From a virus: a stretch of 64,000 nt of DNA. Where the stretch lies: the IMG/VR virus record IMGVR_UViG_3300009506_000002, positions 64,001 to 128,000 of that record; one strand, 5' to 3'. Position numbers and translations under genes: made by a program. Below are positions 16,556 through 48,307 of the stretch, piece after piece. Every line of letters begins with the position of its first letter. The stretch's first letter is position 1. The notes below the pieces were generated by a model that worked only from the letters and a program-made list of their open reading frames with translations, searched no databases and was not told the DNA's origin.

Positions 16556-16996
16556 CTACCCCAATAAGATTATCGGTGTGCGTGTAAATATACCACATTC
16601 GAGTACTCTTGTCAAGTCTTCATTTGAGACCATCGACACGGTATCGATTATGGCAACGTGGAATGTTGCCAAGGCTGGCATGTAGAGACGTGGCAAGCGT
16701 GAACGGAATGATCTGACATTGAACACACGTTCTTGAGAAATGCCGTACTCACGAATGTACTCGCATCTCCGGCGCTCATCGAATGCAAACAGAGCCGCAT
16801 TGTACTTTTGAGCCAGTGCCACGGCTGCGGTGGTGTGACCAGTACGACGAGACATCTGCAATCGCATGACACGGAAGTCTGTCTCGAATGCTGGCAGTGT
16901 TCTGAGGAATTCTTCAGGCAGAGAGTAGTAGCTGTCGATATGCGCTTCTGCAAGAGCAAGCATCTGATCAGTCAGCGTTGGGATTGAGAGGTTCAT
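16556..16996 (-). CDS. small degenerate P-loop protein resembling a terminase ATPase core
   Basis: MSRRTGHTT (Walker A-like, K>H) and VAIIDT (Walker B-like, E>T). Confidence 0.4.
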   Translation of the reverse strand: MNLSIPTLTDQMLALAEAHIDSYYSLPEEFLRTLPAFETDFRVMRLQMSRRTGHTTAAVALAQKYNAALFAFDERRRCEYIREYGISQERVFNVRSFRSRLPRLYMPALATFHVAIIDTVSMVSNEDLTRVLECGIFTRTPIILLG

Positions 16997-17229
16997 ATCG
17001 GCAGCTCCGCAGTTGTATCTTCGTTGTGTTCTTTCCTGATTAGTTTCAGGCGTCTGGCTTCAATCGTCACTTTCTCGAGCAACGTGCCAGAGATATATGC
17101 CTTTGATGCCTCGACGTCAATGTCGTTTTGCTCACAGACAGCTTGAATGGCGTCCAGATAGGTTGTGCCACGAGCAGCCAGTTTTTCGACCTGTTCTGCG
17201 AAGTGCTGCTTTGAGAACTTAATTGGCAT
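16993..17229 (-). CDS. late transcription co-activator gp33
   Basis: F...VE......TYLDAI...CE.N.ID.E....IS..L.EK...EA..L..I, ends LPI; adjacent to gp59/gp32. Confidence 0.85.
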   Translation of the reverse strand: MPIKFSKQHFAEQVEKLAARGTTYLDAIQAVCEQNDIDVEASKAYISGTLLEKVTIEARRLKLIRKEHNEDTTAELPI

Positions 17230-17456
17230 CAGGACTCTTTCTCTTCGAAATACTTACCGTCCAGGCCGCAGATTGATCTGCGTGCTTCGTCACAGGTCAT
17301 GAAGAGACCTTTACCAGTGACAAGGAACTGGATGTGTGCGTCACTGTACGCATCCTTGTGGATGACTTTTGGTGCAACGCACACATCCAGCCTCTTGAGG
17401 CCGTTCGCCTCTTCTTTATGATGGGTACATTTTCTACAGATTTTTGGTTCACTCAT
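17229..17456 (-). CDS. hypothetical Cys-rich protein
   Basis: CxxC..., C...R...CG..GK.FE; overlaps neighbouring genes. Confidence 0.55.
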   Translation of the reverse strand: MSEPKICRKCTHHKEEANGLKRLDVCVAPKVIHKDAYSDAHIQFLVTGKGLFMTCDEARRSICGLDGKYFEEKES

Positions 17457-17782
17457 CGTAGTGGTTCTCCGAAATAGCGCGTTGCGCATTTGATAGTATG
17501 ATCGACGTTGAAGCCTTCGTCGCGCAGCCCCAGGACAATGGCATAGCGAGCAGCCCGGGCCAGCTCTTCATCATGTGAGTCGAGGTCACCGAGCCACTTC
17601 TCTTCGAAGCGATCTGCCCCAATACTTCCACCATAACCGATCGCCTCACGTGCCTTTTTACCAATGTAGAACCAAGCTGCAAAGAGCTCTCCCCGAGTGT
17701 AGTCACGATAGTTGCGCGGCTCGAAAGCTGTTCCTTCTTTGATGCGTTTGCGCTGGCGCGATGTCATCTTACTGAAATCCAT
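17453..17782 (-). CDS. hypothetical protein
   Basis: ORF with SD (GGGAG), in operon. Confidence 0.6.
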   Translation of the reverse strand: MDFSKMTSRQRKRIKEGTAFEPRNYRDYTRGELFAAWFYIGKKAREAIGYGGSIGADRFEEKWLGDLDSHDEELARAARYAIVLGLRDEGFNVDHTIKCATRYFGEPLR

Positions 17783-17800
17783 AATATACTCCCTTGAGGT

Positions 17801-18340
17801 TTATTCTGCGCCACCCATGAATCGCTGCATGTGCTTAGCCTGTGAGATCGCGTCATCAAGAGCGTTATGGTAGGTACCGATGCGCTCGAATACAATATCT
17901 TCAGGTGCAAGTGCCTTCAGTGTACGGTAGCAGCGGTCGTTCCAGAACTTCCATGGCTGCTCGAGGCCTACTGCGCGGTACGCATGAGACATGATTGCGT
18001 TGTCGAACGCAGCTCCATTGCCCCACAGATAAACAGCCTTGCGGCGGTTGAACCACTCGGTAAATTGCTGCATGCCTGATTTCAGGGAGACATTTGAGTT
18101 CTTGGCTTCAACCAGTACCTTGCGGGCTTCTGGTGCCTGACCCATCCACCACTCGACAGTCTTCGGGTTGATGCTCAGGCCAGCTTCAACGCAGGATTCG
18201 GTGTTGATGGTAATGTAAAAGGTTTCTCCGATCTTGTCGGAAGTCGGGTCGAACTCGACTGCACCAATTGACAGGATCGCCGCAGTGGCAACGGTGTCAA
18301 GGGTTTCCAAGTCGACCATGATATGTTTCAATGGTGGCAT
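17801..18340 (-). CDS. DEDDh 3'-5' exonuclease/exoribonuclease
   Basis: MVDLETL, WGNGAAFD, RCYRTL, HNALDDA. Confidence 0.88.
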   Translation of the reverse strand: MPPLKHIMVDLETLDTVATAAILSIGAVEFDPTSDKIGETFYITINTESCVEAGLSINPKTVEWWMGQAPEARKVLVEAKNSNVSLKSGMQQFTEWFNRRKAVYLWGNGAAFDNAIMSHAYRAVGLEQPWKFWNDRCYRTLKALAPEDIVFERIGTYHNALDDAISQAKHMQRFMGGAE

Positions 18341-18363
18341 TGATACTCCTTATTCGTTATGAC

Positions 18364-18392
18364 AGTCTACACGAAAGAGGTATAACTGTCAA
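18364..18392 (-). promoter_or_regulatory. sigma70-type early promoter
   Basis: TTGACA-17-TAGACT; the -35 supplies the TGA stop of the upstream ORF. Confidence 0.8.
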
Positions 18393-18616
18393 GTATTTTC
18401 TGATACCCACCCGATGGTAGTCCATTGGTGAACTGCGGACAAGAACTCGTTGAACTCAATGCTCCACTTTTGTGGTAGGAATTTCAACGGGTAGGCTTCA
18501 TCGTCCACCCTAACGCCATGCTCAACCAAGAAGTCGATTAACTCCTTTTCAGAGTTGAAAATGGCAAACGGCCTGCCCAAGGTTCTGTGCGGGTAAACGA
18601 AAACGTCTTTCGCCAC
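18389..18616 (-). CDS. hypothetical protein
   Basis: ORF in operon. Confidence 0.5.
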   Translation of the reverse strand: MAKDVFVYPHRTLGRPFAIFNSEKELIDFLVEHGVRVDDEAYPLKFLPQKWSIEFNEFLSAVHQWTTIGWVSENT

Positions 18617-18640
18617 AGGCCGATGTCGCGGGGATAAAAC

Positions 18641-18898
18641 TTAATCCTGCGCGGTCGGGAAGATTGCATCGTAGTCGTCGAGCAGGTCGTTGATTTCAGC
18701 TTCGACCTCTTCCTTGTTCTGCTCGAAGTAGATCTTCGCCAGTTTGCGCAGACGTGCTGGCTTCATACCAGTTGCATCCTTCACGCGGTCGCAGATGCCC
18801 TTCTGCAGGTCCTTCTCTGCTGCAACACGAGTCAAGCTCGCATTGAACTCCTGCAGCGCGCGGCCGATGATATCCTTGTCAGCATTACATAGTGCCAT
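18641..18898 (-). CDS. dsDNA-binding protein DsbA-like
   Basis: E...S.TR..AEKD..K.I, ..KLAK.Y..QN..E; 85 aa. Confidence 0.75.
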   Translation of the reverse strand: MALCNADKDIIGRALQEFNASLTRVAAEKDLQKGICDRVKDATGMKPARLRKLAKIYFEQNKEEVEAEINDLLDDYDAIFPTAQD

Positions 18899-19280
18899 TT
18901 AACACTCCTTTTCTTTGATGAGTTTGTATTCGTATTTGTCAAGCTGTCCTCCCCATCCAGAGAAGCAGGTCAACACCGGTATGCCGTATGACTCGACAGC
19001 TTCAATTGCAGCCCTACGCGGAGGGAGGTCGAAGCCATTTGGTAGTTTTGCAGAAGCCGGGACAACAATTTTGCAATCCCATACTCGGAACTCGCTATGA
19101 TCTATTGGCTCCTCTCCCTCTCGGAGATGTGATGCCAGATAATTGAGGATGCGAGAAGCGGGTTTCAGCCATCGGTCGAAGTTACGGTCAACAGCATTTT
19201 CGAGCCATTCACCATTTGCTCCGGTAGCTTTGTAGTGCTCGTAGGCTAGTTCACGAGCGAGACATTCTTCTTGAGTGCGA

Positions 19281-19706
19281 TCACACATATCTAAACTCCA
19301 GACCTGGTACCCAGGTTTTCTTGAACGCAAGGCAGCGCTCTTCGTATGGCACAAGTCCTTCTTTGCGAATTCGGACAATCACGTCCTTCTCGCCTTCAAA
19401 GTTTTCCAGCCAGTCCCAGAAGTCGCTGACTTTGCCATGATACATTGGGAGCAGGTCAACAAACGAACCGGCCTCGCGCTTGCCAGCATGGAACTCTTCC
19501 CAATATTGATCAGTCAGCTCCCAGGCTGTGATTGATGCGCTATTGAGGAACTCGTGATCCTTGTTGTTTTCAGGGTCGAGGATTTTTGATTCGATCTCGC
19601 GCTCGTCATCATTTGAGAACACTGATTTGGTGACAGTGTATCCGTACCAGATCAGGAATGTGAGTAGCGCAAGCGCGTAGATGTCATAAGGATTAGGTGC
19701 GTTCAT
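19281..19706 (-). CDS. hypothetical membrane-anchored protein
   Basis: N-terminal hydrophobic helix. Confidence 0.55.
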   Translation of the reverse strand: MNAPNPYDIYALALLTFLIWYGYTVTKSVFSNDDEREIESKILDPENNKDHEFLNSASITAWELTDQYWEEFHAGKREAGSFVDLLPMYHGKVSDFWDWLENFEGEKDVIVRIRKEGLVPYEERCLAFKKTWVPGLEFRYV

Positions 19707-20089
19707 CTTTAACTTGCTCCAAAGGGTAGTACACGCCAGAAGGTCCGGTCATGTAAAAGTCTTTCCGCTGTATGCGTAAACGAAACGTATTATACAGCAT
19801 TTCTTCGGCTTTGTCAATAGCCGCCATGTGGTGATCACCTGTCTGACAATGCAGGTCATGGGTTTCATCATCCCACTCGATCAGGGTCACTGGCATGTTG
19901 CACTGCCAGTCCTCACTCCACACCTGGAAGAGTTCTATTTCTGTCCTATTCTGCGCTGTCATTCTGTCCACAGATGCATTGTGAGGGAAGGCGCCCACAG
20001 TCCCTACAGAAACCAGTAGGAGTTTCTTCGCGTTGTCTATAACCGTATGGCTCTGCACCTCGTGCAATGCGCATCTGGTTGATTGCATC

Positions 20090-20269
20090 CTAGGTTGCTT
20101 CCAGCGCTTCTGGAGGAACGTCGGTCATTGGTTGAACACTTACCAACTCATCTGCTATCATCTGTGGGATAGCTTTTCGTAGACGTGCGATCTCCTCAGG
20201 ATCGATTTTGCCGTGAGGATCGAAATGGCTATATCCGCCATTGATACGATCTTCGTGGTTGTCAGCCAT
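20090..20269 (-). CDS. 59-aa protein carrying a major-capsid (gp23) Gol-region-like motif
   Basis: LRKAIPQMIADELVSVQPMT; ATG at 20269. Confidence 0.6.
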   Translation of the reverse strand: MADNHEDRINGGYSHFDPHGKIDPEEIARLRKAIPQMIADELVSVQPMTDVPPEALEAT

Positions 20270-20606
20270 TGAGGATCTGCACTTCGCCTTCGCGAACGTC
20301 TTCTTGATCAGTGACAACTTTCTTGCCATCAGACTCGCCGACAACTTCACGCTCGACCACCGACTTCGGACCCTTGTAGTCCTTCAGGTCTTTTGTGGTG
20401 ATGATGCCTGAACCGTGTACCATTGCGTCATCCATGTCTTTCTCCTTTTCCGTAACTTCAATCCTGAATGTTGCTCCAGGGTGAGGGTGTGGCATTGGCT
20501 CAACTCCCTCAATAATCTCCGCAAAGCTGAAAGGTTGCAGAGGAGGCATGACCCATAAATTGACAGGAGGGAAGCGTAGGTCAGGCCAGTTGATCCTTAA
20601 TCCCAC
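20262..20606 (-). CDS. hypothetical protein
   Basis: ORF in operon; weak EIIEGVEPM motif. Confidence 0.5.
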   Translation of the reverse strand: MGLRINWPDLRFPPVNLWVMPPLQPFSFAEIIEGVEPMPHPHPGATFRIEVTEKEKDMDDAMVHGSGIITTKDLKDYKGPKSVVEREVVGESDGKKVVTDQEDVREGEVQILNG

Positions 20607-22485: not shown

Positions 22486-22496
22486 CTAGGCGCTCC

Positions 22497-24428: not shown

Positions 24429-24432
24429 GTTT

Positions 24433-27568: not shown

Positions 27569-27625
27569 AACTCCTGTTCACTCACTCAATGGTGATATTC
27601 TAGCACAAAAGGTGCCGTTTGTCAA
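27569..27625 (-). promoter_or_regulatory. early promoter plus leader cassette
   Basis: TTGACA-17-TAGAAT..ATTGAGTGAGTGAACAGGAGTT. Confidence 0.82.
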
Positions 27626-29475: not shown

Positions 29476-29478
29476 GAT

Positions 29479-29856
29479 TTACTCTACCTCTCCGGTGTAG
29501 AATCCAATGCCTACAATTTTCTGAATCTCGACGACACTGTCGTTCAATTTGCCAATGCTCGAAAGGCCAGTGAACATAGACTTGTCGTTTTCAATGATTG
29601 ATTTAATCAATGCTCCCGCAGGGGTATCGAGAATTTTGATACTTGCGATGATATTGCCATCGTCATCCATGCGCATCGACTCAACGATGTGAGATGCTCT
29701 TGATGGATCATCTGTTAAACCATCAAAGGTGCAGACAGCCGGACCCTTGAACTCTTCGACTGCTTTGCGCAGTGTCTCCTCAGGATAAATGCGACCATAC
29801 GTTGACGTTGGAACGCCTGCCTTTGGAAGATCAATATTGTATTCTTTTGTCATCAT
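29479..29856 (-). CDS. stand-alone prohead protease gp21-like paralogue
   Basis: GRIYP.E.L..AV, SRASH.V, KILDTP.G...K..I, GLSS.G. Confidence 0.72.
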   Translation of the reverse strand: MMTKEYNIDLPKAGVPTSTYGRIYPEETLRKAVEEFKGPAVCTFDGLTDDPSRASHIVESMRMDDDGNIIASIKILDTPAGALIKSIIENDKSMFTGLSSIGKLNDSVVEIQKIVGIGFYTGEVE

Positions 29857-30293
29857 TTACCCCAGTCGAGTTTCAGTGGTTCAACATAAACCAGATTTGC
29901 TTCCAAAGCAGGAATATTTATTGGCTTGCCATCAGGCCGCCAGTCTCCAACATCGTAACTCAAGGTCACGTGCGGGACGAAGTTGTCATACGCATGAGGG
30001 TAGCCTCTGCTTAACCATTCCTCATGGCGGCGCTGAATTCCAGGACTATCGAGTACCAGCACAAGGACATTGCCCGATTCAGTAGGCCATACCTCAAGAT
30101 ACCACGGCAGCGCAGTGAAATTGACTACTTCCCGGATATGTGGCGCTTCCGTGCGCTCCGTACAGTAAAGTACAGTGCTATGAAGCATTCCTTTAGGAAC
30201 CGGGTTAGGAACCTGAATTTCTCGCGCAAAGCGATGTAAGTTACCCATGGATCGGCCATTGTATTTCACTCCTACGTAGACGCCGTCAGTCAT
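29853..30293 (-). CDS. acb1: anti-CBASS 2H phosphodiesterase (T4 57B/Acb1 family)
   Basis: G.YV, VPNPVP...HST..Y, LEVW.T..G..LVLVLDS, PH.TLSY.VG, EPLKLDW: two HxT motifs, collinear with T4 Acb1 as recalled. Confidence 0.88.
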   Translation of the reverse strand: MTDGVYVGVKYNGRSMGNLHRFAREIQVPNPVPKGMLHSTVLYCTERTEAPHIREVVNFTALPWYLEVWPTESGNVLVLVLDSPGIQRRHEEWLSRGYPHAYDNFVPHVTLSYDVGDWRPDGKPINIPALEANLVYVEPLKLDWGK

Positions 30294-30314: not shown

Positions 30315-30343
30315 ATTCTAGCACGAACGGCTCCTTTTGTCAA
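30315..30343 (-). promoter_or_regulatory. early promoter driving acb1 and the protease paralogue
   Basis: TTGACA-17-TAGAAT. Confidence 0.8.
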
Positions 30344-30583: not shown

Positions 30584-31723
30584 TCATACCAGCTCTCCTG
30601 CTTTAACCTTCCAGTCCTCGAACTTAGACTGCTTGCCGAGGTGGTTCTTCAGTTGGTCAACCACAAAGAGGAACACGTCCTCATCTGGGCGATCAAACAG
30701 ACGGAACACGATGTTGCTGAAGGCAGCAGCACGATACTCGGACAGAGCAAAGTCCTTCTTGGTAGAGAACTTGGCCTTGGTAGCCACAGCCCAGGCACCT
30801 ACTGCATCAATCAGCACATGCAGGTCACGGGCAAACTCGCCAAAGTAGACACGGTCAGACTCTTCGATGTATGGCATGATGTCATCAATCGAAGCAGTCG
30901 CGTGGCAGTCAAGAACGAGCTGCGCGGTGATGTGTGGGTGGTTGAACATCTCCTTGATCTTGTGGCGCTTGACGTACCACGGAGACTTGATCTTAACCGG
31001 GCCAGTCTCAACCAGCTCGACTACGACACCCTCATCGTTAGACATGTTCTCAACAACCTTCATGATGTCAACCAGAGTGGTAGACGGACCGAAAGCGAAG
31101 TGAGGAACAGTCTCTACGCCGTACTCGACGGCCTTGCGGAATACAGAACCCTTCTTGTGCTCGTATGCGCCAGTCTTGTTATCGCGTACAGCAATCAGAC
31201 GCAGGAATGCGCGGTCATACTGCACCACGATCTTAGACGGGATGAAGTTCGGGTCGTGGAACTCAAAGATTGGAGTCAGGCCAGCGAAGATGCACTCCGC
31301 AACAAACGCCTTCATGCCAGTGGTCTGAGTCAGTGGGTGATGCTCGAGGTAGCGCTCAAACTCCTCTGCGACACGCTTAGTGCCCCAGATGATCTTACCA
31401 TTGCACAGGAATGGTGCAACCATTGCGCCGTCGAGCTTAGTGGTCACAGACACGATGCCCTCGTTGACGAGGTCGCCAATCTGGGTGTGCTCCTTCTCGT
31501 TGACGTTGAAGAACTTGTGCAGCGGACGACGGATGACCTTGCCAGTTACGTTGTCGAAGATGATACCACGGCACTCGAGCGCCTCTGGTGAATCAAACGT
31601 ATCTGGGAAGGCAACGTTGTAGGCTACGACAGTGTAACCATCGCGCACGTTGACGCCGATCTCATCCTTGTGAGCGACAGCAGCCAGAAACTCGTCTTTG
31701 TTAGTGATGTATGGCAGAATCAT
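30584..31723 (-). CDS. rnlA: RNA ligase 1 (RnlA-like)
   Basis: ECRGIIF, PLHKFFN..E, KLDG, TPIFE, EGVV, KIKS.WY. Confidence 0.9.
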   Translation of the reverse strand: MILPYITNKDEFLAAVAHKDEIGVNVRDGYTVVAYNVAFPDTFDSPEALECRGIIFDNVTGKVIRRPLHKFFNVNEKEHTQIGDLVNEGIVSVTTKLDGAMVAPFLCNGKIIWGTKRVAEEFERYLEHHPLTQTTGMKAFVAECIFAGLTPIFEFHDPNFIPSKIVVQYDRAFLRLIAVRDNKTGAYEHKKGSVFRKAVEYGVETVPHFAFGPSTTLVDIMKVVENMSNDEGVVVELVETGPVKIKSPWYVKRHKIKEMFNHPHITAQLVLDCHATASIDDIMPYIEESDRVYFGEFARDLHVLIDAVGAWAVATKAKFSTKKDFALSEYRAAAFSNIVFRLFDRPDEDVFLFVVDQLKNHLGKQSKFEDWKVKAGELV

Positions 31724-31863: not shown

Positions 31864-31892
31864 ATTCTACACTAAAACGGTGCCGTTGTCAA
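31864..31892 (-). promoter_or_regulatory. early promoter
   Basis: TTGACA-17-TAGAAT; the -35 supplies the upstream stop. Confidence 0.8.
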
Positions 31893-32365
31893 GCACTTTC
31901 TGGCGCGTCGAGGTTCCAAGGATATTTGACGATCTCGTCGGTGATGACGTTGTGGAAATAGTCAGGAATGAAATCTGACTTGGCTCGCAGGTCAATGGTT
32001 GCGGTGTATGTTTTGACGCCGTGGCCTTCAAGTGCTTTGACCAGTTGGCAGAGTGTATTGCCAGTGTCTGAGATGTCGTCGATGATCAACATGCACAGGT
32101 CTTCTGGGTTTGGTGCTTTGTCACAGTCAGGCGCGTGGATGTGGAGCTCTTTGGTTGGCATCATCCCACGACCTGCAGGAGAGGAGTAGAACGTGATTGT
32201 CAGTGGGAGGTCGAAGTAGTAGGCGACCATCGTAGCGGGAACAAGGCCACCACGCGCCACACCCAGGACATGAGTGATGCCAGAGTAACGGAAGCGGTTA
32301 AAGACGTTCCGCGTGAACTTGTCAATATCTTCGTGGGTACGGGATAGGATCGTTCTGCTCGTCAT
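31889..32365 (-). CDS. type I phosphoribosyltransferase
   Basis: GVARGGLVPA; PRPP-binding LIIDDISDTGNTL; YPW. Confidence 0.85.
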   Translation of the reverse strand: MTSRTILSRTHEDIDKFTRNVFNRFRYSGITHVLGVARGGLVPATMVAYYFDLPLTITFYSSPAGRGMMPTKELHIHAPDCDKAPNPEDLCMLIIDDISDTGNTLCQLVKALEGHGVKTYTATIDLRAKSDFIPDYFHNVITDEIVKYPWNLDAPESA

Positions 32366-32821
32366 GTTTTCTCCACCATTCATTTATCAGCTCCGCACGT
32401 TCGGGCGTGCAGAAGTAGTCATCAAGGCATCCGCCATCTTCACAGACGGGGCAAACTGGCACATCGAAGTAGCCTGTCTCCCAGTCTCCGTCTTGCTCCA
32501 TAGGGCAGTCAGCAATCAGGAACTCACCGCCACAGTCAGAGCAGCGCGCCATGTCACATGAAGGTAGACGCTTTGATTCCTGAATCTGATCGAAGATCTT
32601 CATCAGATCAGGATGACCTGATTCAGTCAACGGCATATCATCCGACATCAGGAACTTCCCAAAGTGAAAGCAGGCGCAGACCTTCTTTGAAGTCAACCTT
32701 GGGTTGTGTCAGTGTCTCCCATTGCTAACGACGCTCTTCAGCACATGAAGGAGGGCAGCAAAGGTGACCACAATAAGGGCATGATTTTGGCATAGGTATA
32801 ATAAACTCCTTCTGAGTGCTA

Positions 32822-37082: not shown

Positions 37083-37574
37083 TCATACTTCCACCTGTAC
37101 GTGATCAGCTTCCCACGGATAGACAACCCATGGGTCATCTTTGGTGAGGTGAACAGCATAAAAGTCGGGCTCGTAGCTTGATCCGTTACGATAATGGAGA
37201 GCAGCAGTGTAGACGCTTTCTACTTGGTGCGTGAGGTGCCCTACAGCAGCCCTGAGCGTGCTTCCAGTGTCGGAAATGTCATCAACTATCAAAACGCGCG
37301 AATTGATGTCTATGCTCGAATGCTTGTCATCAATCCAATTCATGTAGGATTCATGATGCCCGTATGCGATGTCTCTCGCGCTTGGTGTGCGCACTTGCGC
37401 CACTGCCAACGGGAGATGCAGGAAGTGAGAAATGTAGACAGCAGGAACAAGCCCGCCGCGTGAAATACCCATGATATGGGTGAATGGGATATTTGAGTCA
37501 TCAATCTGCTTGAGGAGATTCTCCATCTCCACAGAGTTGATTTCAACTTTCGGGCCGCCTTCAAACGTCGTCAT
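37083..37574 (-). CDS. second type I phosphoribosyltransferase
   Basis: GISRGGLVPA, VLIVDDISDTGSTL, WVVYPWE. Confidence 0.88.
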   Translation of the reverse strand: MTTFEGGPKVEINSVEMENLLKQIDDSNIPFTHIMGISRGGLVPAVYISHFLHLPLAVAQVRTPSARDIAYGHHESYMNWIDDKHSSIDINSRVLIVDDISDTGSTLRAAVGHLTHQVESVYTAALHYRNGSSYEPDFYAVHLTKDDPWVVYPWEADHVQVEV

Positions 37575-37983: not shown

Positions 37984-39294
37984 TCATAGATCAGCGAGTT
38001 CCTCTGTATATTGTTTTCTGTGGTTGATATTCTGCCACATTTCGATCGCCTTGTCAAGCTCGTAGATTTCAGCCTTCAGCTTGGCAGAATACTCCTGCGT
38101 GACGTTGTAGATCGGCATCTCGAGCAATGAGTTCTGATGCTCACGGCTGAACTTCAAACGACGCATGTCTGCCTGAATGTCAGCCTTGTTCTTGCGTCCT
38201 TGCAAGTCAAGCTCGCCATCAAGAACAGCCTCAACGAAGCGGCGCTTCTCTGACAGGTTGTGCATCTTGTCCTTGTCACGCTTTGTCCATGACTTGTAGC
38301 GGACATTGTACATGCTCAGACGATAGTCACAGAACTGCGCAATCAGGTCGCCTACGTTGTCAAACGTCTTCAGCTTTCCTGTCTCGTCAATCAGTGTGAG
38401 GTTCTCGGTACGGCGTTTGACCAGCTTCAACTTCTTCAGCAGTTCTGCCTCATCGCTATCTTTCAGCTTGCGCGGCAGTGTGACTTCGAAGTGGAAGCCA
38501 TCCTTTGAGCATTTGTCGATGTAGTTGACCAGCGTACCCGCATCTACCATCTTGTCCAGCTCTTTGATGTAGCCTGCGCGGTCATAGCCAATTGGCAGCT
38601 CTACAATGCTGGCCTTAGTCGGGCTCTTGCGCGTGACTTTGCCATAGATGACCCAGCTATCTCCATCAGCCACAACCTTGCCCTTGAAGTCAGGGAACGT
38701 AGGCTTGATTGACTTAGGTTTCTTGCCAGATACCAGATAGCGGCAGCAGTGATCAGCCACATCTGATGGGTCACGCGGCAGAATGTCAGTTGCAAAGCCT
38801 GTCGCAATGCCCTTTGCACCGTTGACCAGTACCCACGGAATGAGCGGCAGATAGAACAGCGGCTCAGGGTTCTCTGGGTCTGGGTGTGACGGTAGGATGT
38901 CCTGATCAGGGAAGAACTTCTCAAAGTTCTTGCTCAGGGAGATGTCCGTGTATCGTGGTGATGCAGCAGACGTGACCATGCGGGTACCGAAAGTACCGTC
39001 ACCCTCGAGCAATGGGATGTTATTGTCAAACGTGCGCGCGAGGCGGATGATCGTGTCGACCATCGAGCTATCGCCGTGGTGATACTTGGCAATCGGGAAG
39101 GTGTAACCCATCAGCGCCAGCGTCTTGATGAACTTGTTCTTGGCTTCCTTCGTAGCAGTGAAGATGGCCTTACGCTGGCCTGGCTTCAATCCGTCAATCA
39201 GTGAAGGGATGGCTCGATTGTAGATTGTGTAGAGCGCATAGTCGCGTAGGTCGGTGTTAGTATGTTGGGAAACTGTGATTGTTCCTTTTTTCAC
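37984..39294 (-). CDS. DNA topoisomerase II medium subunit gp52
   Basis: RAIP..IDGLKP.QRK, YHHGD.S, AASPRY catalytic Tyr, LVNG..GIATGF. Confidence 0.95.
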   Translation of the reverse strand: MKKGTITVSQHTNTDLRDYALYTIYNRAIPSLIDGLKPGQRKAIFTATKEAKNKFIKTLALMGYTFPIAKYHHGDSSMVDTIIRLARTFDNNIPLLEGDGTFGTRMVTSAASPRYTDISLSKNFEKFFPDQDILPSHPDPENPEPLFYLPLIPWVLVNGAKGIATGFATDILPRDPSDVADHCCRYLVSGKKPKSIKPTFPDFKGKVVADGDSWVIYGKVTRKSPTKASIVELPIGYDRAGYIKELDKMVDAGTLVNYIDKCSKDGFHFEVTLPRKLKDSDEAELLKKLKLVKRRTENLTLIDETGKLKTFDNVGDLIAQFCDYRLSMYNVRYKSWTKRDKDKMHNLSEKRRFVEAVLDGELDLQGRKNKADIQADMRRLKFSREHQNSLLEMPIYNVTQEYSAKLKAEIYELDKAIEMWQNINHRKQYTEELADL

Positions 39295-39404
39295 TTAATC
39301 TCCTATTGCAGATGTCAGCGCAAGGCTAACACAGATACAGATAATTGTCAAGATAATGTAGAATCGAGTCTGTGCGCGCCTGCGCACGCGATCAAGAAAC
39401 ATAC

Positions 39405-41237
39405 TCATGACAGCCACTTCTTACGCTTTGAGACATCGTCACCAAAGGCCATCTCGAGTGCTGCCTGACCATGATCATCCATAATAACCGTGTCGATAAC
39501 AGGGTCATTGATCATCTGGTCGTAGACGTCATCTTTCAGTGAGCCGAGACCCTTGGCATACGTGAAGCGCCAAGAAGAATATTGGTCAGAGACCTTGTTC
39601 CACTCCTCAAGTGAGTAGAAGCCCTTAACGTCCTTGCCCTTGCGTACCACGATGATCGGGCTGCGCAAGATTTCAATACGCTTCTCCTCGAACAACTCAG
39701 GCCACATTGAGAACAGGTTCAGCAGTAGACCCTGAATGTTCGCGCCGTCAGTATCCGCGTCGGTGGTGATACGGATTTTGCCGTAGTTGAGGTTTTTGGC
39801 TGGCTTGCCAAACTCAAGGCCAACAATCGCCATGATGTCAGATACGATGACGTTGTTCGCAACCTTACTTAGCTCGTCCTTGTTTCTCCAGTTGAGGGGC
39901 TTACCAGTGAGCGGATAGGCACCGTGGAAGTTGTTGTCACGGACATTGATGAAGTTATTGATCGCTGAATCTCCCTCCATCAGATGCAGGATGCACTTGT
40001 CACGCGCGCGGCTATTGGCCTTGATCTCGTCAGCAACCTTCTTGTTCTTGTTCGCTTTCTGTGCAGCGCGAACCTTCGCCAATTCAGCCTGTCGCTGCTT
40101 GGCTTCAACCCAGTCGACCACTGACTGCACGACCCCACTCTTCAGAACGCCAGCAACCATCTTGTCGCTGACTGTGAAGCAGGTACCGTAGTCACGGACT
40201 TCTGTGATCAGGTTGTCCTTGGTCTGTGAGTCATAACGCGGGTTCATGATTCGCGCATTGATGAAGAGCATCATGTGACTACGGATGACCGCTGGCTTCA
40301 CGTCGATCTTGTTCTTCTTCTTGATGTGCGCCCTGATCTTGTCAATAAGCTGCCACGCGATGTAGTCGATGTGTGAACCACCAACCGATGTCTGATTACT
40401 GTTCACGAAGGATACGTGCTGGAAGCCGTCATCTGATGCAGCAACAGCAATCTTCCAGTCCTCATTTTCATCGTACACGAACTCCTCGCAGTACATTTCG
40501 ATGTACCTCTTGAAGTTGGCAAAGCGGACACGGCATCCGTTCAGGTAGATTTTCAGGTGAGGGTTACATGCTGCCACGTCGGTGACGCGCTTTGTCAGCA
40601 TCTCGATATCACCTGGAGTAAACTTAGTACGACCGAAACGCTTGTAGTCAGGCAACCAAGATACCTCGGTGAAGTTCTGGTGTGACTTTTTGGTCTTGCC
40701 GCCAGAGGTCTCGCCCATATTGTCAGACCATGTCTGTGTGAACTGCATCTTGCCGTCAGCCGTGGTGACTGTGAACTCCTTAGAGAAGATGTTCGTCAGT
40801 GATGCACCCTCACCGTTCTGTCCGGTGAGGTCATTGGTATCCTCGTCGTCGAAGTTCGACCCAGCCTTCAGCTCTGAGAAGATCATCTCAGGAATCCATT
40901 GCTGGTGCTCTTTGTGAACAGCAACCGGGATGCCGCCATTGTCGAACACGGTGATCTGTCCTGTTTGGTGATCAAAGTTGACCTTGATTGTATCCAGATG
41001 CTGTCCCTCAGGACGTTTGGAATGGTCAACAGAGTTGTCGAGAATCTCCTCAAACATCTTGAGTAGTGCAGGGTTCCAGGTTACTTCCTTTTTGACCATC
41101 TGCATCTTGTGATCATGTACGATACACCAGGTGATTGCAGTGTGGTCAACAATGGAACCAAGGTAGCGTCCAGGGCGCTTAAGGACGTGCTCGACGTCCG
41201 AAAGCTTCTGATACTTTTCCTCAAGTGCAACTGTCAT
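39405..41237 (-). CDS. DNA topoisomerase II large subunit (gp39+gp60 fused)
   Basis: EHVL.RP..Y.GS, DNG.GIP-like, GSNF, G.NG.GA, EGDSA, D.D.DG, KGLGS. Confidence 0.95.
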   Translation of the reverse strand: MTVALEEKYQKLSDVEHVLKRPGRYLGSIVDHTAITWCIVHDHKMQMVKKEVTWNPALLKMFEEILDNSVDHSKRPEGQHLDTIKVNFDHQTGQITVFDNGGIPVAVHKEHQQWIPEMIFSELKAGSNFDDEDTNDLTGQNGEGASLTNIFSKEFTVTTADGKMQFTQTWSDNMGETSGGKTKKSHQNFTEVSWLPDYKRFGRTKFTPGDIEMLTKRVTDVAACNPHLKIYLNGCRVRFANFKRYIEMYCEEFVYDENEDWKIAVAASDDGFQHVSFVNSNQTSVGGSHIDYIAWQLIDKIRAHIKKKNKIDVKPAVIRSHMMLFINARIMNPRYDSQTKDNLITEVRDYGTCFTVSDKMVAGVLKSGVVQSVVDWVEAKQRQAELAKVRAAQKANKNKKVADEIKANSRARDKCILHLMEGDSAINNFINVRDNNFHGAYPLTGKPLNWRNKDELSKVANNVIVSDIMAIVGLEFGKPAKNLNYGKIRITTDADTDGANIQGLLLNLFSMWPELFEEKRIEILRSPIIVVRKGKDVKGFYSLEEWNKVSDQYSSWRFTYAKGLGSLKDDVYDQMINDPVIDTVIMDDHGQAALEMAFGDDVSKRKKWLS

Positions 41238-41239
41238 GC

Positions 41240-41881
41240 TTACCTCGTAATTACGTTATAGAGATTGTCGTGGCGATAGACGCGCTTACCAAACCCGTTG
41301 ATCTGCAGAGCAACGCTCTCCTCAACCAGTATTGAGCGAGGCTTCTCGGAGACCGGACGCTCATACTCATCTGGTGCAGATGATCCGTATTGAGAATTCA
41401 TCCTGCGCCAGTAGGATGCGATGTACTTGGCAGCGTCATCTTTCGTCTTATGTATGGAGATTCCATCAGGGCGAGTTCCCCAGCCACGCTCTGACTCTTC
41501 CCACGCAATGACAAAGACCTCTACCTTTGTCTTGGTGAACAGCTCAGGGAAGTCCTCTTGCAGCTTGGCGAGAGTGCGCTTTGCGTCTTCAGTCACTCGC
41601 TCTGTGCGCTTGCGCTCCTGCTCCTGCTCTCGTAGCGCTTCTGCGTTCTCCATCTCATAGAAGATCTGGTCAAGTGACTTGGCAGGACGAACCTCTTGCA
41701 GCTCGTAGCCAACAATCTCACAGCCTTCATAGGCTTTGCGCGGGTTGCGTACCTGACCGAGGTGGCATTTTACGTGTGAAAGCTGCTTCCACATCTTGCC
41801 CTTTTTGGTGAAGTCGGGATCCATGTCACCTGTAGAGAACAGGCCATCAGTGTTTTTGATTTTGAAGATTGTGTCTGTCAT
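41240..41881 (-). CDS. hypothetical two-domain protein
   Basis: F.K.GK.W..L.H N-domain; WEESERGWG.RPDG C-domain. Confidence 0.6.
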   Translation of the reverse strand: MTDTIFKIKNTDGLFSTGDMDPDFTKKGKMWKQLSHVKCHLGQVRNPRKAYEGCEIVGYELQEVRPAKSLDQIFYEMENAEALREQEQERKRTERVTEDAKRTLAKLQEDFPELFTKTKVEVFVIAWEESERGWGTRPDGISIHKTKDDAAKYIASYWRRMNSQYGSSAPDEYERPVSEKPRSILVEESVALQINGFGKRVYRHDNLYNVITR

Positions 41882-41907
41882 AGCGAACCTCTCATGATGA
41901 AATATTG

Positions 41908-41943
41908 AAAAGGATGCGGCAGGACTGTGAAAGTCCCGCCGCG
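41908..41943 (-). terminator. intrinsic terminator
   Basis: GCGGCGGGAC-TTTCACA-GTCCTGCCGC followed by ATCCTTTT on the minus strand. Confidence 0.7.
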
Positions 41944-41947
41944 TAGT

Positions 41948-41985
41948 GTGCCGCTTTTGGAGGTGAGTGATGAGGAGAGCGGCAC
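41948..41985. ncRNA. hairpin with a 22-nt SD/anti-SD loop (candidate regulatory RNA)
   Basis: GTGCCGCT/AGCGGCAC stem; minus-strand loop CTCCTCATCACTCACCTCCAAA. Confidence 0.4.
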
Positions 41986-42259
41986 GTGTAACTTACCCGA
42001 TCTTGGTGACTCGACCTTCGTAGTCAGTGAAGCCGATATCGAACGGCACGTAAATCTTTGTACGCGCACCCTTAGGATACAGGGTGTCTTCAGTCACCAG
42101 AATCATAAAACCATTTTCCAGCTTGTCGACGACCTCACCAACGACGTACTTGTCATCCCTACCCTCACATGGCATGAAATCAAGTGCCTTGATGCTATCG
42201 CCGATATTTGCAACTTTCTCGAAACTCATAATTAACTCCTTTGCTCACTCAATAATGAA

Positions 42260-42288: not shown

Positions 42289-42297
42289 GAACTATTT

Positions 42298-43413: not shown

Positions 43414-43618
43414 TCTTACATTACCTTCGTTGAATATGCAGCGCCAGCAGCGGCAAGCGCATCAGTCAGTTCGCCAGCGTCACGCGAGTTAACGGAAATA
43501 GCCAGCTCTTGGTCATCGGCCTCCCAGTTGATGCCGAGGTCGCCGGTGGCCGGGCCAACCTTTTCAGCGTCACTTGCAGTAGGGAAACTAATTTTGATTC
43601 TCATGATAAACTCCTTTG

Positions 43619-43665
43619 CTCACTCAATAAGTGAAGTCTACACGAAACGGAACCGTTTGTCAAGA
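43619..43665 (-). repeat. 47-bp promoter cassette, identical to 46019-46065
   Basis: ctcactcaataagtgaagtctacacgaaacggaaccgtttgtcaaga at both sites; contains TTGACA-17-TAGACT. Confidence 0.9.
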
Positions 43666-43889
43666 CTTTTTCTGCATCGTTGCGTAGATCTCATAGAAGC
43701 CTTCAGTCACACCCGGCCATTCCTCCTGTTGCGATGCCGCAGTTGCCTTTTTTATCTTCGGAGCGCATCTGTGACAATAGATTGGCTTGTGAATATACTC
43801 CTCTGATATCTTGCGGGATGGAGCATGGTGTTGCCAACATCGAGCATTTCCTTTAGTTGTTCGAGTGTGTGGTTCATCTCACTTCCTCC

Positions 43890-44675
43890 TTAATCTAATC
43901 CCATTTCTGCCAGTACATCCATGAACATAGTGGCTGCCCCTGCTGCCCCTGCTGCTGCCTCTGCTGCCTCTGCTGCTGCCCTTGCTGCCCTTGCTGCTGC
44001 CCATGCTTCTGCCCTTTCTGCTGGCCCTGCTGCCCATGCTGCTGCCCCTGCTGCCCATGCTGCTGCCTCTACTGCTGCCCCTGCTGCCCCTGCTGCTGCC
44101 CCTGCTGCAGTCCCTGCTGCTGCCCATGCTTCTGCTGCCCATGCTTCTGCCCCTGCTGACCTTGCTGCTGCCCATGCTTCTGCCCTTTCGGATCGATCTG
44201 ACCCGTCAAGCCACCCGGTTGCCCAAGTGGTAAACGCATCATCCTTGTAGACGCGCATGGTCACCCTGATAGCAAACTCGACCCGCTGCTCGGTAGTGAT
44301 AGCCGGCAATGGCATCTCGCGGACAAGCCTTTGTTTTTTCGTACCAGCTTTTAACCCGTCAAAAGCAACCTCCCCACTATGCTCTATTTCCCACAACTTC
44401 GGATTTATGAAACGTGCGTGTATCAGGTTAAAGATCACCGCAAGCACTGGGTGGCGATACTGGTGCAGTACCCCATCGGTGCATAATTTGTTGCCCTTAC
44501 CCTTTGCGACCCGCCAGCGATTCATGCGGAACTTAAAGCCGCCATGTGTTGTCATCTTCTGCGTGGTCAGTTTGTAAGCAATCATCTCACTTCCTCCTTT
44601 CGTATAACCAATCATCTCACTTCCTCCTTTCGTATAACCAATCATCTCACTTCCTCCTTTCGTATAACCAATCAT
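43890..44675 (-). CDS. hypothetical protein with an Ala-rich low-complexity tail and four tandem in-frame starts
   Basis: AAWAA/AAGAA/AAEAA repeats at 43932-44185; ATGs at 44675, 44645, 44615, 44585. Confidence 0.7.
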   Translation of the reverse strand: MIGYTKGGSEMIGYTKGGSEMIGYTKGGSEMIAYKLTTQKMTTHGGFKFRMNRWRVAKGKGNKLCTDGVLHQYRHPVLAVIFNLIHARFINPKLWEIEHSGEVAFDGLKAGTKKQRLVREMPLPAITTEQRVEFAIRVTMRVYKDDAFTTWATGWLDGSDRSERAEAWAAARSAGAEAWAAEAWAAAGTAAGAAAGAAGAAVEAAAWAAGAAAWAAGPAERAEAWAAARAARAAAEAAEAAAGAAGAATMFMDVLAEMGLD

Positions 44676-44698
44676 CTCACTTCCTCCTTTCGTATAAC
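44579..44698. repeat. 4 x 30-bp perfect tandem repeat containing SD plus ATG
   Basis: caatcatctcacttcctcctttcgtataac x4; 18-bp partial copy at 43874-43891. Confidence 0.95.
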
Positions 44699-44740
44699 GC
44701 CGCAGGCATGGTCGGCATGCGCATGGCTTCTCGATGTGCA

Positions 44741-44769
44741 ATCCTATCATGATTAGACGCCGTTGTCAA
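44741..44769 (-). promoter_or_regulatory. sigma70-type promoter of the Ala-rich gene
   Basis: TTGACA-17-TAGGAT. Confidence 0.65.
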
Positions 44770-45568
44770 GTAATTTCCTGACCAAGGTCGAACAAGACCC
44801 TTGTCCTCAATGATGACTGTGCCGAGGAACGGTTTGTCGATGACGCCTTCCTCAATGCCACCCCAGCCAGTTGGTGCAACACGGATCTTCCGAATCACCT
44901 TGCGCGCGTTAGGATACACCGCAGCCCACAAGAACATGCGGCCATCCTGCATACCAACGGACAGAATCTTCGCGTCAAGTGCCATCTCGATGTTCGGTGC
45001 GACTTCGTACTTGAAAATCTTCATGCCTTCTTCTAGACGAACCACCTTATAGTCACCGTTGAGCAGGCCACCCATTACGTGGGAGAGGTTCCAGCCCTCG
45101 CGCCATGAATCACCATTCTGGCCTGTGACTTCAACCTGCACGTTGTTCTCCTCGTCCTCGATGATCAGGACGGTGGCGTACAGATAGCCAGGTGATCCGA
45201 AGTGTAGGTGAATCTGGTCACCTGATTGTAGAATGCTCATGAAAGGTCCTCCATAACAAGATATCTGCATCCAGCTTCCTGGGCAAATTCGATTGCTTCC
45301 CAGCGGAAGAAGTCTTCACGCGAGCGAGCGTAGTAGAACACGCCGAACTTCTTGCACCATGCCTGGAAGTACTCGTATGATCCATCATCGTAGGGACCCA
45401 TGCCCTCTGGGTAGATCTTTGAGTTGTCAAGCAGGCCGACGTCGATCGAAATCAGGGAAGTCCCTTCAATGGCTTGCGGATTCTTTGGCCCGAAGTCCAT
45501 TGGATACCCGTTCTGCTTTTCATACTGCTCCGGGTCAGTTATCAGGTAGGAATAGATGGATTCGGACA

Positions 45569-45997
45569 TTATGCAGTCACCTCGTAAGGCTTGTCCCACT
45601 GGCCGACGTTGATGTCGATGTACCAACCAACGTGGAAGTAGTCAGACTGGATGTCGGAGTGGTCGAAGTTCTCGATGTCCGAGCCCTTGCCATTCATGGC
45701 ATCTTTCAGCTCTTCCAGGAACTGGCGAACAACACCCGAGTAGCTGTCATGAATCCAGTAGGTGTTCACGTCGATGTAGGTAAGGTCGCTAAAGTCACGC
45801 GGGTTGCCATCAAAGCTAGGCTTGTCTGCGTTGGTCTTGGCATAGTTGCCGATGATGTCGAGCTTGCCGCTCTTGATGTTGACAACAAGGGATGAATGAT
45901 GGCGCACGGCGATAGACGCCTTCATGCCATACTTCTTGAGGACCGCCTTGATCTGCGGTGCCAGTTCTTTCTTCTTCTCTTGGTTCATGTAAGCCAT
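45569..45997 (-). CDS. conserved phage early protein
   Basis: First gene after a promoter cassette; D.SD.Q.DYF...WY..I..G.W.KPY C-terminus. Confidence 0.65.
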   Translation of the reverse strand: MAYMNQEKKKELAPQIKAVLKKYGMKASIAVRHHSSLVVNIKSGKLDIIGNYAKTNADKPSFDGNPRDFSDLTYIDVNTYWIHDSYSGVVRQFLEELKDAMNGKGSDIENFDHSDIQSDYFHVGWYIDINVGQWDKPYEVTA

Positions 45998-46018
45998 AAT
46001 AAATCTCCTCTTTGTTCA

Positions 46019-46065
46019 CTCACTCAATAAGTGAAGTCTACACGAAACGGAACCGTTTGTCAAGA
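46019..46065 (-). repeat. 47-bp promoter cassette, second copy
   Basis: Identical to 43619-43665, exactly 2400 bp apart. Confidence 0.9.
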
Positions 46066-46080
46066 AAAAGATTGCACGAG

Positions 46081-46104
46081 AAAGGCGCCCGTAAGGACGC
46101 CCTT
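46081..46104 (-). terminator. intrinsic terminator
   Basis: GGCGTCC-TTAC-GGGCGCC-TTTCT on the minus strand. Confidence 0.65.
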
Positions 46105-46121
46105 CAATGTGGATGTGTGGA

Positions 46122-46472
46122 TTACTTGCCGAGGTTGAACGCCACTTCTGCGACGTCTTTTGCGCTTGGCTTTTCATCGCCGAACTTGTCAACAATTGCT
46201 TCGTTGACGTCCTGCACAGAAAGCTCGCTGGCATCATTGCCTGCTTTGAGGGCTTTTGCGATCAGCGTCTTACGTGAAACGTCTTTCTTGACGATCTTCA
46301 GACCAACTGTCTCCCACCACTCTTCGAAGCTGCCGGCTTCAACAGCAACCTTTTCCTCAACCTGAGTTTCATCGTTGGTTTCAGTCTCCACCTGTTCGGT
46401 TTCTACGACCTCGGTTACTGCCTCTTCGACGACTTCATCCTTTTTCTTCTTGCCACGCTTCAATAGAGCCAT
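46122..46472 (-). CDS. acidic late protein
   Basis: Preceded by CATAAATA (46500-46507) and AGGAG; followed by a terminator. Confidence 0.65.
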   Translation of the reverse strand: MALLKRGKKKKDEVVEEAVTEVVETEQVETETNDETQVEEKVAVEAGSFEEWWETVGLKIVKKDVSRKTLIAKALKAGNDASELSVQDVNEAIVDKFGDEKPSAKDVAEVAFNLGK

Positions 46473-46488
46473 TTTCGTCTCCTGGAAC

Positions 46489-47067
46489 TTATTGTGTTTT
46501 ATTTATGCTTTCGTGAAGGTACTTCGCGATGTAGTACGCATCAATGAGGTCGTCTACTGGCGAAGGAAGCTTCTTGGTATGCTTCAATCCCATTTCATCG
46601 ATGAGGTTGATGCCAGTCTCTACCACGAATGCAGCAAAGATCTCGTCCTTATCAGCGCGACCGTTGCCAGTGGCGAACTTCTTTGCGGTTGGTGGCGCAA
46701 TGGTGTCAATTTGGATATTCTGACGGTAGAGCTTGTGTTTGAGCAATCCGCAGTTTTCGCCAAGATGAAACACGCGCCCGCGCGCTGCAAAAGCATAGTC
46801 TTCGATAAGTACATGCTCGACGTTGTACTGAATGGCGAAGTTCTCAAAGTTCTGAGATAGCTTGTCAAAGCGCTCCTCAGGTGAAGAGCAAGTTGGTGCT
46901 GGGTTTTGGAATATGGCGATTCGACCATTGAGGTAATATTGGTCGAGCTTCTTATTGTTTGGTACTGCCAAGAAGTAGCAGTTCTCAATGCTGAAAGGCT
47001 TGTCCGCGTCACATACGCACATTGCCGGACTGGTCAGCGAATAGTCAATACCTGCGATCAGCTTCAT
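46489..47067 (-). CDS. RuvC-like Holliday junction resolvase
   Basis: GIDYSL, IEDY, KKFATG.G.A.K, D..DA. Confidence 0.82.
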   Translation of the reverse strand: MKLIAGIDYSLTSPAMCVCDADKPFSIENCYFLAVPNNKKLDQYYLNGRIAIFQNPAPTCSSPEERFDKLSQNFENFAIQYNVEHVLIEDYAFAARGRVFHLGENCGLLKHKLYRQNIQIDTIAPPTAKKFATGNGRADKDEIFAAFVVETGINLIDEMGLKHTKKLPSPVDDLIDAYYIAKYLHESINKTQ

Positions 47068-47222
47068 TATTCAGTGGCTTCCTCTTCGTAGGTCTCTATG
47101 TCATCTGAGCCACAAAGAGAGCAGTATTCGACCGAGTAACGGTCATCGTCCAAGTTGTTGAAGACTGAATAGGCTCCTCCGCAATCTACGCACTCAACTC
47201 TGGTAAATTGTTCTACAAACAT
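47067..47222 (-). CDS. small zinc-ribbon protein
   Basis: Hand translation MFVEQFTRVECVDCGG...YCSLCGSDD...; follows a late promoter; below the ORF-track cutoff. Confidence 0.65.
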   Translation of the reverse strand: MFVEQFTRVECVDCGGAYSVFNNLDDDRYSVEYCSLCGSDDIETYEEEATE

Positions 47223-47278
47223 TCGAACTCCTAGTGGTGTTGTTTGCAGTATTTAGCAGAGGAGCCTATTTGATCAGC

Positions 47279-47548
47279 TTACTCCCAGTTGATGTTCTGG
47301 ACGCTTGAAACTCGGAAGCGGCGCCATCCGTTTACGTCCAGGTCATAGACAGGGACGATGTTTGGATTTGGCTTGCGACCAGAGATTTCAGCGACCTCGT
47401 TGACGACATCAACAGGCTCTGGAAGCAGTTCGGCTTTCAGTGTGCAGCGCATGACGCGCTCTGAACCGTCAACCTTGGTGAACGTTACTTCCGCCACGCC
47501 CTCTTGGAGCTTGGCAATCAGGTCTTCGCGTTTTAGTGGTGTATTCAT
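47279..47548 (-). CDS. SH3/WYL-like phage protein (DUF2693-like)
   Basis: V.FTK.DG.ER.M.CTL, V.DLD..GWR.FR. Confidence 0.75.
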   Translation of the reverse strand: MNTPLKREDLIAKLQEGVAEVTFTKVDGSERVMRCTLKAELLPEPVDVVNEVAEISGRKPNPNIVPVYDLDVNGWRRFRVSSVQNINWE

Positions 47549-47579
47549 TAGAACTCCTGTTCGATCAATAGAGATATGA

Positions 47580-47608
47580 AGTCTACCACACGAAGACCTT
47601 CTTGTCAA
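47580..47608 (-). promoter_or_regulatory. early promoter
   Basis: TTGACA-17-TAGACT; the -35 supplies the upstream stop. Confidence 0.78.
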
Positions 47609-48307
47609 GACATCTTTGCTCGAGCATAGTCGAATGTGATGGTGAACGTAATCTCGTCGTCATCCATGCTTCTGCTTGAACGATAGCCCGACGTGAACGC
47701 ACCCACAATCTCAATATCGATGAGTAGCGCGAACGGTACATGAAGAACCGGATAGTAGCGCAGTGATGCAGAGAACTTCCAGTCAGTCATGACCTTGGCA
47801 TTCTCAAATGAGCGTACCAGTGCCTCAGACAGAAGCGATCCCTTCTTGGCTTTCAGCTCGAGAGTCGTATTGTCGAGGAATCTTGCCACGACCATTTCTG
47901 ACTGTCCGATCTTGTCACCAAAAAGACACTTCTCCCATGGGCGATCTTTCAGCTCGAGCTCTTTGCTCAGGCTTTCAAGTTTCTTGGATATTTCGCCAAG
48001 CTCTTCAGATACTTTGATGGTCATATATTCTCCTGTCAATCATTCCACTTCACAAAGAAGTCTGTGTCCGGATCTTCTATTGTTTCAACATCGAGATTTT
48101 CGATCGTGCATGAGAAGTCATCGTCGGTGGCCTCAATGTTGAGGGTTTCAGGCGTCTGGCTGTGCTCCGGGTGATCGAGTTCAATGTGTGCGGTCAAGAA
48201 CGTAACGTTTGCTCCACAGATAGGACACTTCGTGCAGCATGGAACGCAGTGAATAGCGCCTGATCGATGACAGTCACAGGTGCATTCGAATGACCGTGTT
48301 GCGCAAT

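Follow-up and report, generated by a model that had tools for sequence, protein, structure and literature searches.

We analyzed four short open reading frames (ORF1 to ORF4) on the minus strand of a 64,000-nucleotide window, bases 64001-128000 of a 142,377-bp IMG/VR phage contig (IMGVR_UViG_3300009506_000002) with direct terminal repeats and 49% GC. The source is a divergent T4-like phage, and gp32, gp59, gp33, an Rv2179c-type exoribonuclease, an Rnl1-type RNA ligase, and Acb1 are recognizable near the four ORFs. An initial annotation had described the ORFs as miniature look-alikes of the large terminase gp17, the capsid protein gp23, the prohead protease gp21, and the tail-tube protein gp19, and had proposed that they form an early decoy system against bacterial immunity. 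All four ORFs are present, at window positions 16556-16996 (ORF1), 20090-20269 (ORF2), 29479-29856 (ORF3), and 47605-48039 (ORF4), inside dense arrays of co-directional genes. A codon-usage score (log-odds) derived from the 42 longest genes is 0.16, 0.33, 0.57, and 0.43 for ORF1 to ORF4, respectively, compared with averages of 0.62 for long genes and -0.79 for off-frames. In each case, the score is positive in the annotated frame only, and by codon usage all four look like real genes. Full-length copies of gp23 (genome positions 39207-40478), gp21 (41537-42187), gp19 (44923-45417), and gp17 (47086-48672) lie elsewhere in the genome, outside the window. An all-against-all comparison of the genome's proteins returned about ten paralogue pairs, and the only pairs of a virion protein with a small early ORF were gp21/ORF3 and gp23/ORF2. 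Our reading, held tentatively and somewhat short of an even chance, is that the four ORFs are separate genes, that ORF3 and ORF2 are true virion-protein mimics, and that ORF3 is a counter-defense protein that binds and does not cut.

ORF3 encodes a 125-amino-acid protein that matches phrog_207 ("head maturation protease") with an E value of 1.4e-9 and the phage's own gp21 with an E value of 2.5e-6, and it is approximately 37% identical to cyanophage gp21. The profile of the ORF3 family matches the T4 gp21 structure (PDB 5JBL) with an E value of 1.1e-9. The AlphaFold2 model of ORF3, built with 40 homologues, has a predicted local distance difference test score (pLDDT) of 89.9, and its top PDB match in Foldseek is again 5JBL (TMq 0.68, probability 1.0), followed by herpesvirus proteases. 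By sequence and by modeled fold, ORF3 is thus truly homologous to the gp21 prohead protease, as first proposed. Like T4 gp21 (MEROPS S77, PF03420), it has the core fold, a beta-barrel, and the non-catalytic motifs NGRIYP, SH, and LxTPxG (LDTPxG in ORF3). Unlike T4 gp21, it lacks both termini and the catalytic residues. The missing parts are the N-terminal blocking segment of about 25 residues and the C-terminal part of about 50 residues, the alignment stopping before the DVVSDPS segment, and full-length proteases are about 210-245 amino acids long with the C-terminal region. The catalytic pair in the T4 record is His85 (in ELNHP) and Ser140 (the first Ser in VSSRG), and ORF3 has neither residue when aligned to its own gp21 or to T4 gp21. 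The 5JBL chain carries Ala at both positions, which fits an inactive crystallization mutant.

The loss of the catalytic pair extends to the relatives of ORF3. When 1.84 billion representatives were searched exhaustively with HMMER, 184 proteins were retrieved at E<=1e-3; a word-indexed search returned only ORF3 itself. The relatives are mostly 110-150 amino acids long (range up to 160) and align colinearly with ORF3 over the whole length, and among 40 sampled, 39 match PHROG 207 and 26 match PF03420. When aligned with one model, all 205 full-length proteases from IMG/VR loci keep both catalytic residues, whereas none of the 135 short members does; the His is kept in 2 of these short members and the Ser in 17. 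Nine members found later, including forms of 212 and 297 amino acids, are likewise dead. Residue identity varies widely in the His column (25 Met, 13 Pro, and others) and in the Ser column (40 Arg and 28 Gly), and near-invariance is limited to Y24, T78, and G81. Pairwise identity within the family is 19-37%, and the motifs are nonetheless conserved. On these alignments, the ORF3 family is a large, old family of dead mini-proteases, and because of its size, its age, and its conserved motifs, gene debris is ruled out as an explanation for ORF3. Homologues listed in BFVD occur in Yersinia phage fHe-Yen9-04 and Klebsiella phage vB_KvM-Eowyn, and a 142-amino-acid homologue there carries the automatic name "prohead core scaffold protein".

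A proteolytic ORF3, using other residues to cleave host defense proteins or injected polyproteins, might be imagined from two adjacent Ser residues, which lie two positions downstream of where the canonical Ser would be, and from the conserved SH motif. We regard this as extremely improbable, since the canonical columns vary as described and no alternative column holds an invariant nucleophile.

ORF3 is coupled to a known anti-defense gene. The intact gene acb1 (29853-30293, minus strand) encodes an anti-CBASS (cyclic oligonucleotide-based antiphage signaling system) 2H phosphoesterase that matches PF23474 with an E value of 3.5e-29 (101.8 bits; cut-off 27) and contains the two HxT motifs, HST and HVT. 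Its TGA stop codon overlaps the ATG of ORF3 in the sequence ATGA, which bears out the translational coupling claimed in the initial annotation. About 20 nt upstream of acb1, at 30315-30343 on the minus strand, lies a sigma-70-type promoter match (TTGACA-17-TAGAAT with a TG extension, 11/12). Near-identical TTGACA-17-TAGAAT sites with partly shared spacers occur on the minus strand at 27597-27625, 30315-30343, and 31864-31892, and the three shared promoter-like sites suggest a phage-specific early promoter consensus. Because of the promoter match and the ATGA overlap, we infer that ORF3 and Acb1 are made together and early, from one early-type promoter, by translational coupling. The claim of early expression had been made for all four ORFs; this promoter match makes it plausible for ORF3 only. 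Late-promoter motifs in the window are no more numerous than expected by chance, and nothing was inferred from them. In its early-type acb1 operon, ORF3 also differs from T4 gp21 in position, lying about 50 kb from the gp21-gp23 head genes.

The gene contexts of the relatives came from other searches, as the 135 short members of the representative search are all on short singleton contigs. A DNA pattern scan for the short family gave one IMG/VR match and 34 metagenome matches, with about ten true members; the 23 matches on genome contigs were all chance. Nearly all sequences retrieved with two degenerate DNA patterns around NGRIYP were full-length proteases. In four of the seven contexts, a NADAR gene lies within 1.7 kb of the dead protease, at distances of 3 nt (L268), 595 nt (L283), 1065 nt (L266), and 1655 nt (megaphage LR756511.1); in another phage (G001), the distance is 5 kb. 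The first three are metagenome loci in which the dead protease is followed by the NADAR gene, and their proteases are only 25-30% identical to one another. The order at L268:5708-8361 (Ga0233415_10002155) is ADP-ribosylglycohydrolase, dead protease, NADAR, YdjM-like, and NUDIX-NrtR. For comparison, a single NADAR was found among 27 phage records totaling 3.07 Mb, and NADAR is absent from 239 loci centered on full-length proteases and from the chance-hit loci of the same scans. The association of NADAR with dead proteases is striking. The remaining two contexts are in G016 (IMGVR_UViG_3300030385_002649), a complete jumbo phage of 370 kb in which a single full-length protease is accompanied by two dead mini copies at 223974-224351 and 206889-207230. 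One of the dead copies overlaps the stop of a calcineurin-like metallophosphoesterase gene by 4 nt, and the other lies between an RNase T-like exonuclease gene and a NUDIX gene. In the contexts seen, the relatives thus stand beside NADAR, NUDIX, and phosphoesterase genes and never beside head genes. Orphan NADARs of phages neutralize DarTG1 (PMC11825919). Like ORF3, Acb1 and orphan NADARs are early accessory genes, the immediate or near neighbors of dead mini-proteases; unlike ORF3, they work as enzymes, destroying an immune signal or reversing a modification, whereas ORF3, with no active site, would act by binding. The acb1 operon and the relatives beside NADAR and nucleotide or ADP-ribose hydrolases give circumstantial support to the counter-defense role that had been claimed for all four ORFs, but for ORF3 only.

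The immune-trigger premises of that claim hold up for gp21 and for Gol. T4 gp21 alone activates CBASS, and its protease active site is required (Hobbs and Kranzusch, March 2026 preprint, PMC12991175). The trigger is the cleavage by gp21 of a disordered loop of the CD-NTase (cGAS/DncV-like nucleotidyltransferase) at I/LxE-type sites (PMC12991175), and mutations in the prohead protease allow escape from type I CBASS (bioRxiv 10.1101/2023.05.21.541620). In the case of Gol, this segment of gp23 drives the cleavage of EF-Tu by Lit (PMC3014915). A counter-defense function of ORF3 is plausible from gene context and homology. ORF3 is a pseudo-enzyme that has kept the core fold of gp21 and lost its catalytic residues, and it would act by binding. 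In the mechanism that we favor, it would blunt protease-sensing immunity by masking the cleavable CD-NTase activation loop, or, alternatively, by holding free gp21 inactive outside proheads. Either way, ORF3 would block the CBASS trigger upstream and complement Acb1, which destroys the CBASS signal. No phage countermeasure at the protease-sensing step of the CD-NTase is described in the literature found.

The same homology could serve head assembly. Here, the ORF3 family would bind or co-assemble with gp21 to delay its activation, or would be a minor core or scaffold component, in the manner of the T4 protein Inh. Gp21 is a tightly self-regulated pentamer (PMC9958956), and T4 encodes an inhibitor of it, Inh, recorded as "minor head protein inhibitor of protease". 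The family also retains motifs common to the active proteases, and the BFVD name of the 142-amino-acid homologue points the same way. However, ORF3 has a sigma-70-type promoter, is coupled to acb1 far from the head genes, and lacks the C-terminal part found in all full-length proteases, and its relatives, in the contexts seen, adjoin genes of the kinds listed above rather than head genes. Inh itself resembles ORF3 in that a phage protein restraining the prohead protease is one of the mechanisms proposed for ORF3; it differs in being a late head component, and no sequence relation between the two was seen. We consider an assembly role a serious but unlikely explanation.

The second mimic is ORF2, a mini-ORF of 59 amino acids with a copy of the gp23 Gol segment at residues 23-49 (window 20123-20203). 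A profile of 62 distinct gp23 Gol-region segments was run on 2734 six-frame segments of the whole genome; gp23 scored 2.5e-24, ORF2 1.2e-8 (31.7 bits), and the next best segment 1.3. A second Gol profile matches ORF2 with an E value of 1.9e-8. Pfam and PHROG give marginal matches only, to the gp23 N-terminus, and the PF07068 match is confined to profile positions 3-32, of about 376 for the HK97-type capsid domain. Residues 23-49 align with T4 gp23 residues 92-118, and we take residues 93-122 of T4 gp23 to be the Gol peptide. The profile comparisons confirm that ORF2 is a free-standing copy of the gp23 Gol segment, which upholds the Gol-like assignment. The 29-residue Gol region shows the highest conservation within gp23 and binds domains II/III of EF-Tu (PMC3014915). 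ORF2 would be expected to bind whatever the Gol segment of gp23 binds, in T4 these EF-Tu domains. It resembles the T4 Gol/Lit/EF-Tu system in aligning to this segment and differs in being a free-standing 59-amino-acid product instead of a part of the capsid protein. ORF2 follows the family consensus VSVQPM rather than the allele of its own gp23, and its third-codon-position identity to its own gene 23 is 50%; for these two reasons, it is not a recent duplicate.

Could ORF2, and possibly ORF4, be neutral debris, a fragment of a captured gene-23 allele that is open by chance? No homologue of ORF2 turned up in 5.8 billion proteins or in IMG/VR, which makes it a singleton, and only 27 of its 59 residues are gp23-like; ORF4 is a singleton as well. 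Against this stand the 31.7-bit match of ORF2 to the gp23 family profile, its agreement with the consensus, and its origin from something other than a recent copy. In addition, ORF2 has a start codon, scores as coding in its annotated frame and in no other, and abuts both neighboring genes with no spare DNA on either side. Detached gp23 pieces also occur in other phages. On a 236-kb contig (G019), a 238-amino-acid protein (L251:3988-4704) contains the full Gol motif at residues 132-168 (E 2e-11) and no other similarity to capsid proteins, and a NADAR gene lies about 5 kb away. Half of the Gol motif is present in each of two ORFs of the jumbo phage G016 (297158-297229 and 328450-328500), one of them just downstream of an adenosine deaminase gene, so that this phage holds both types of mimic seen in the window. 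T4 itself retains gp61.1 (NC_000866.4 18966-19130, 54 amino acids), which is 46% identical over 37 amino acids to gp23 residues 57-93 (E 1e-8). We judge debris to be quite unlikely.

Gp61.1, encoded upstream of the T4 primase gene, resembles ORF2 in being a small ORF of the early region with a copy of a short N-terminal piece of its own phage's major capsid protein. The copied parts differ: gp23 57-93 spans the gp21 cleavage site, directly before Gol, and gp61.1 has no match to the Gol profile, whereas ORF2 copies Gol itself and is not beside a primase gene. The N-terminus of gp61.1 also resembles the capsid-targeting leader of internal proteins. These comparisons suggest that short N-terminal pieces of gp23 have become separate genes repeatedly across phages. 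Genes of this kind, such as that for gp61.1, have been annotated for decades and, to our knowledge, never explained.

The resemblances proposed for the other two ORFs are not supported. ORF1 (146 amino acids, between gp59 and gp33) is a degenerate P-loop protein. Its P-loop SRRTGHTT corresponds to SRQSGKTT in gp17, with the Walker A Lys replaced by His, and IIDT stands in place of the Walker B D-E pair. The pattern [ST]R..G[KH][ST] occurs genome-wide only in ORF1 and gp17, and the terminase-like description is correct to the extent of this shared motif. However, PF03237 at E<=10 finds gp17 alone in the genome and not ORF1, and a 48-sequence terminase-ATPase profile gives ORF1 an E value of 18, with an hhalign probability of 2%. 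Searches with phmmer against the phage's own proteins and the PDB, and with tblastn against phages, returned nothing for ORF1. The Atlas places it in a populous family of viral hypothetical proteins of 140-160 amino acids, and the nearest folds to its model there are the AAA_19/AAA_30 domains of SF1 helicases (template modeling (TM) score 0.58-0.63). A terminase origin of ORF1 is therefore not supported, the likeness being at the level of the motif with profile and fold tests negative. On sequence and model, ORF1 is a generic, apparently inactivated P-loop protein for which descent from terminase is not demonstrable.

ORF4 is a 144-amino-acid orphan, and its tail-tube likeness is not supported. 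It matches nothing in Pfam or PHROG; PF06841 misses it while finding gp19 and two other tube-like proteins. Its AlphaFold2 model has a pLDDT of 51 and no fold match at TM>0.35, and a word-indexed search for homologues elsewhere returned the query only. The only hints, weak ones, come from the Atlas: ORF4 has a feature score of 0.91 to clusters in which 16-29% of the members carry PF06841, and its poor model has a TM score of 0.55-0.62 to Hcp; by the Atlas's own statement, scores of this kind have a chance rate of 4-10%. We also considered ORF4 as a relative of the dead proteases from a similar order of secondary-structure elements, and profile comparison showed no relation. At its end, ORF4 shares 4 nt with a gene for a WYL_2/Sm-like SH3 barrel protein (47279-47608), and a RuvC-like gene (46489-47067) comes next.

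These results bear on the four-part decoy system, a coordinated early arsenal in which the ORFs would act against Avs, Lit/CapRel, CBASS, and a tail-tube sensor. Virion-protein triggers of immunity are established in the literature (PMC12991175, PMC3014915, PMC9712102), two of the four ORFs truly mimic such triggers, and G016 combines two dead mini-proteases with two partial Gol-motif ORFs. However, the terminase and tail-tube resemblances lack support from profiles and folds, and the ORFs are dispersed and unlinked, lying 4-27 kb apart with no shared regulation seen. Moreover, CBASS senses the activity of gp21 and not its shape (PMC12991175), so that a shape decoy is not an obvious counter, and the free Gol peptide is a co-factor of Lit in T4 (PMC3014915), so that early expression of ORF2 could trigger the defense instead of blunting it. 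We therefore set the arsenal aside as very unlikely. The ORF3 and ORF2 genes lie 9 kb from each other and have no element in common, and we treat them as two independent cases.

Several points weigh against a counter-defense role of ORF3 and a matching role of ORF2. The support comes from sequence, models, and gene context. In the contexts seen in other phages, Acb1 stands beside no other dead mini-protease. The phage studied here has no NADAR, nor do the two contexts in G016, of the seven, and the NADAR-linked contexts may share ancestry rather than be independent events. The early regions of big phages are rich in accessory genes, and guilt by association is weak for that reason. ORF3 may also have an assembly role, given the scaffold label in BFVD and the precedent of T4 Inh. 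ORF2, for its part, is a singleton. A broader proposal is that dead mini-proteases are a widespread and so far undescribed class of counter-defense pseudo-enzymes that blind protease-sensing immunity (the "tripwire" loops of CD-NTases in CBASS) by binding the bait loop or muzzling free gp21 and that travel in cassettes with enzymes erasing signals or modifications, such as Acb1, NADAR, and ADP-ribosylglycohydrolase, with stand-alone Gol peptides in a matching role against exclusion that senses the capsid or is based on EF-Tu; we find this distinctly doubtful.

The surroundings of the ORFs add a few observations. The neighbors of ORF2, ORF3, and ORF4 have no PHROG or Pfam annotation of a homing endonuclease or of anything else. 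An Rnl1-type RNA ligase gene (30584-31723) lies directly upstream of the acb1 operon, and an Rv2179c-like 3'-5' exoribonuclease gene (17801-18340) lies close to gp33; these are nucleotide and RNA-end enzymes typical of repair or counter-defense islands. Two paralogues of 163-164 amino acids are encoded at 31889-32383 and 37083-37574 (phmmer E 2.3e-20). No close relatives of the phage were found in viral, metagenome, and genome collections with ORF3, ORF2, Acb1, gp59, and P0003 as queries, and megablast of 14.5 kb against phage records gave no match.

The window thus carries a dead copy of the CBASS-triggering protease, coupled to acb1, and the family to which this copy belongs keeps company with proven counter-defense genes. 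If ORF3 suppresses gp21-triggered CBASS, it would represent a new pseudo-enzyme mode of immune evasion and would give a function to a large, unnamed family of phage proteins.

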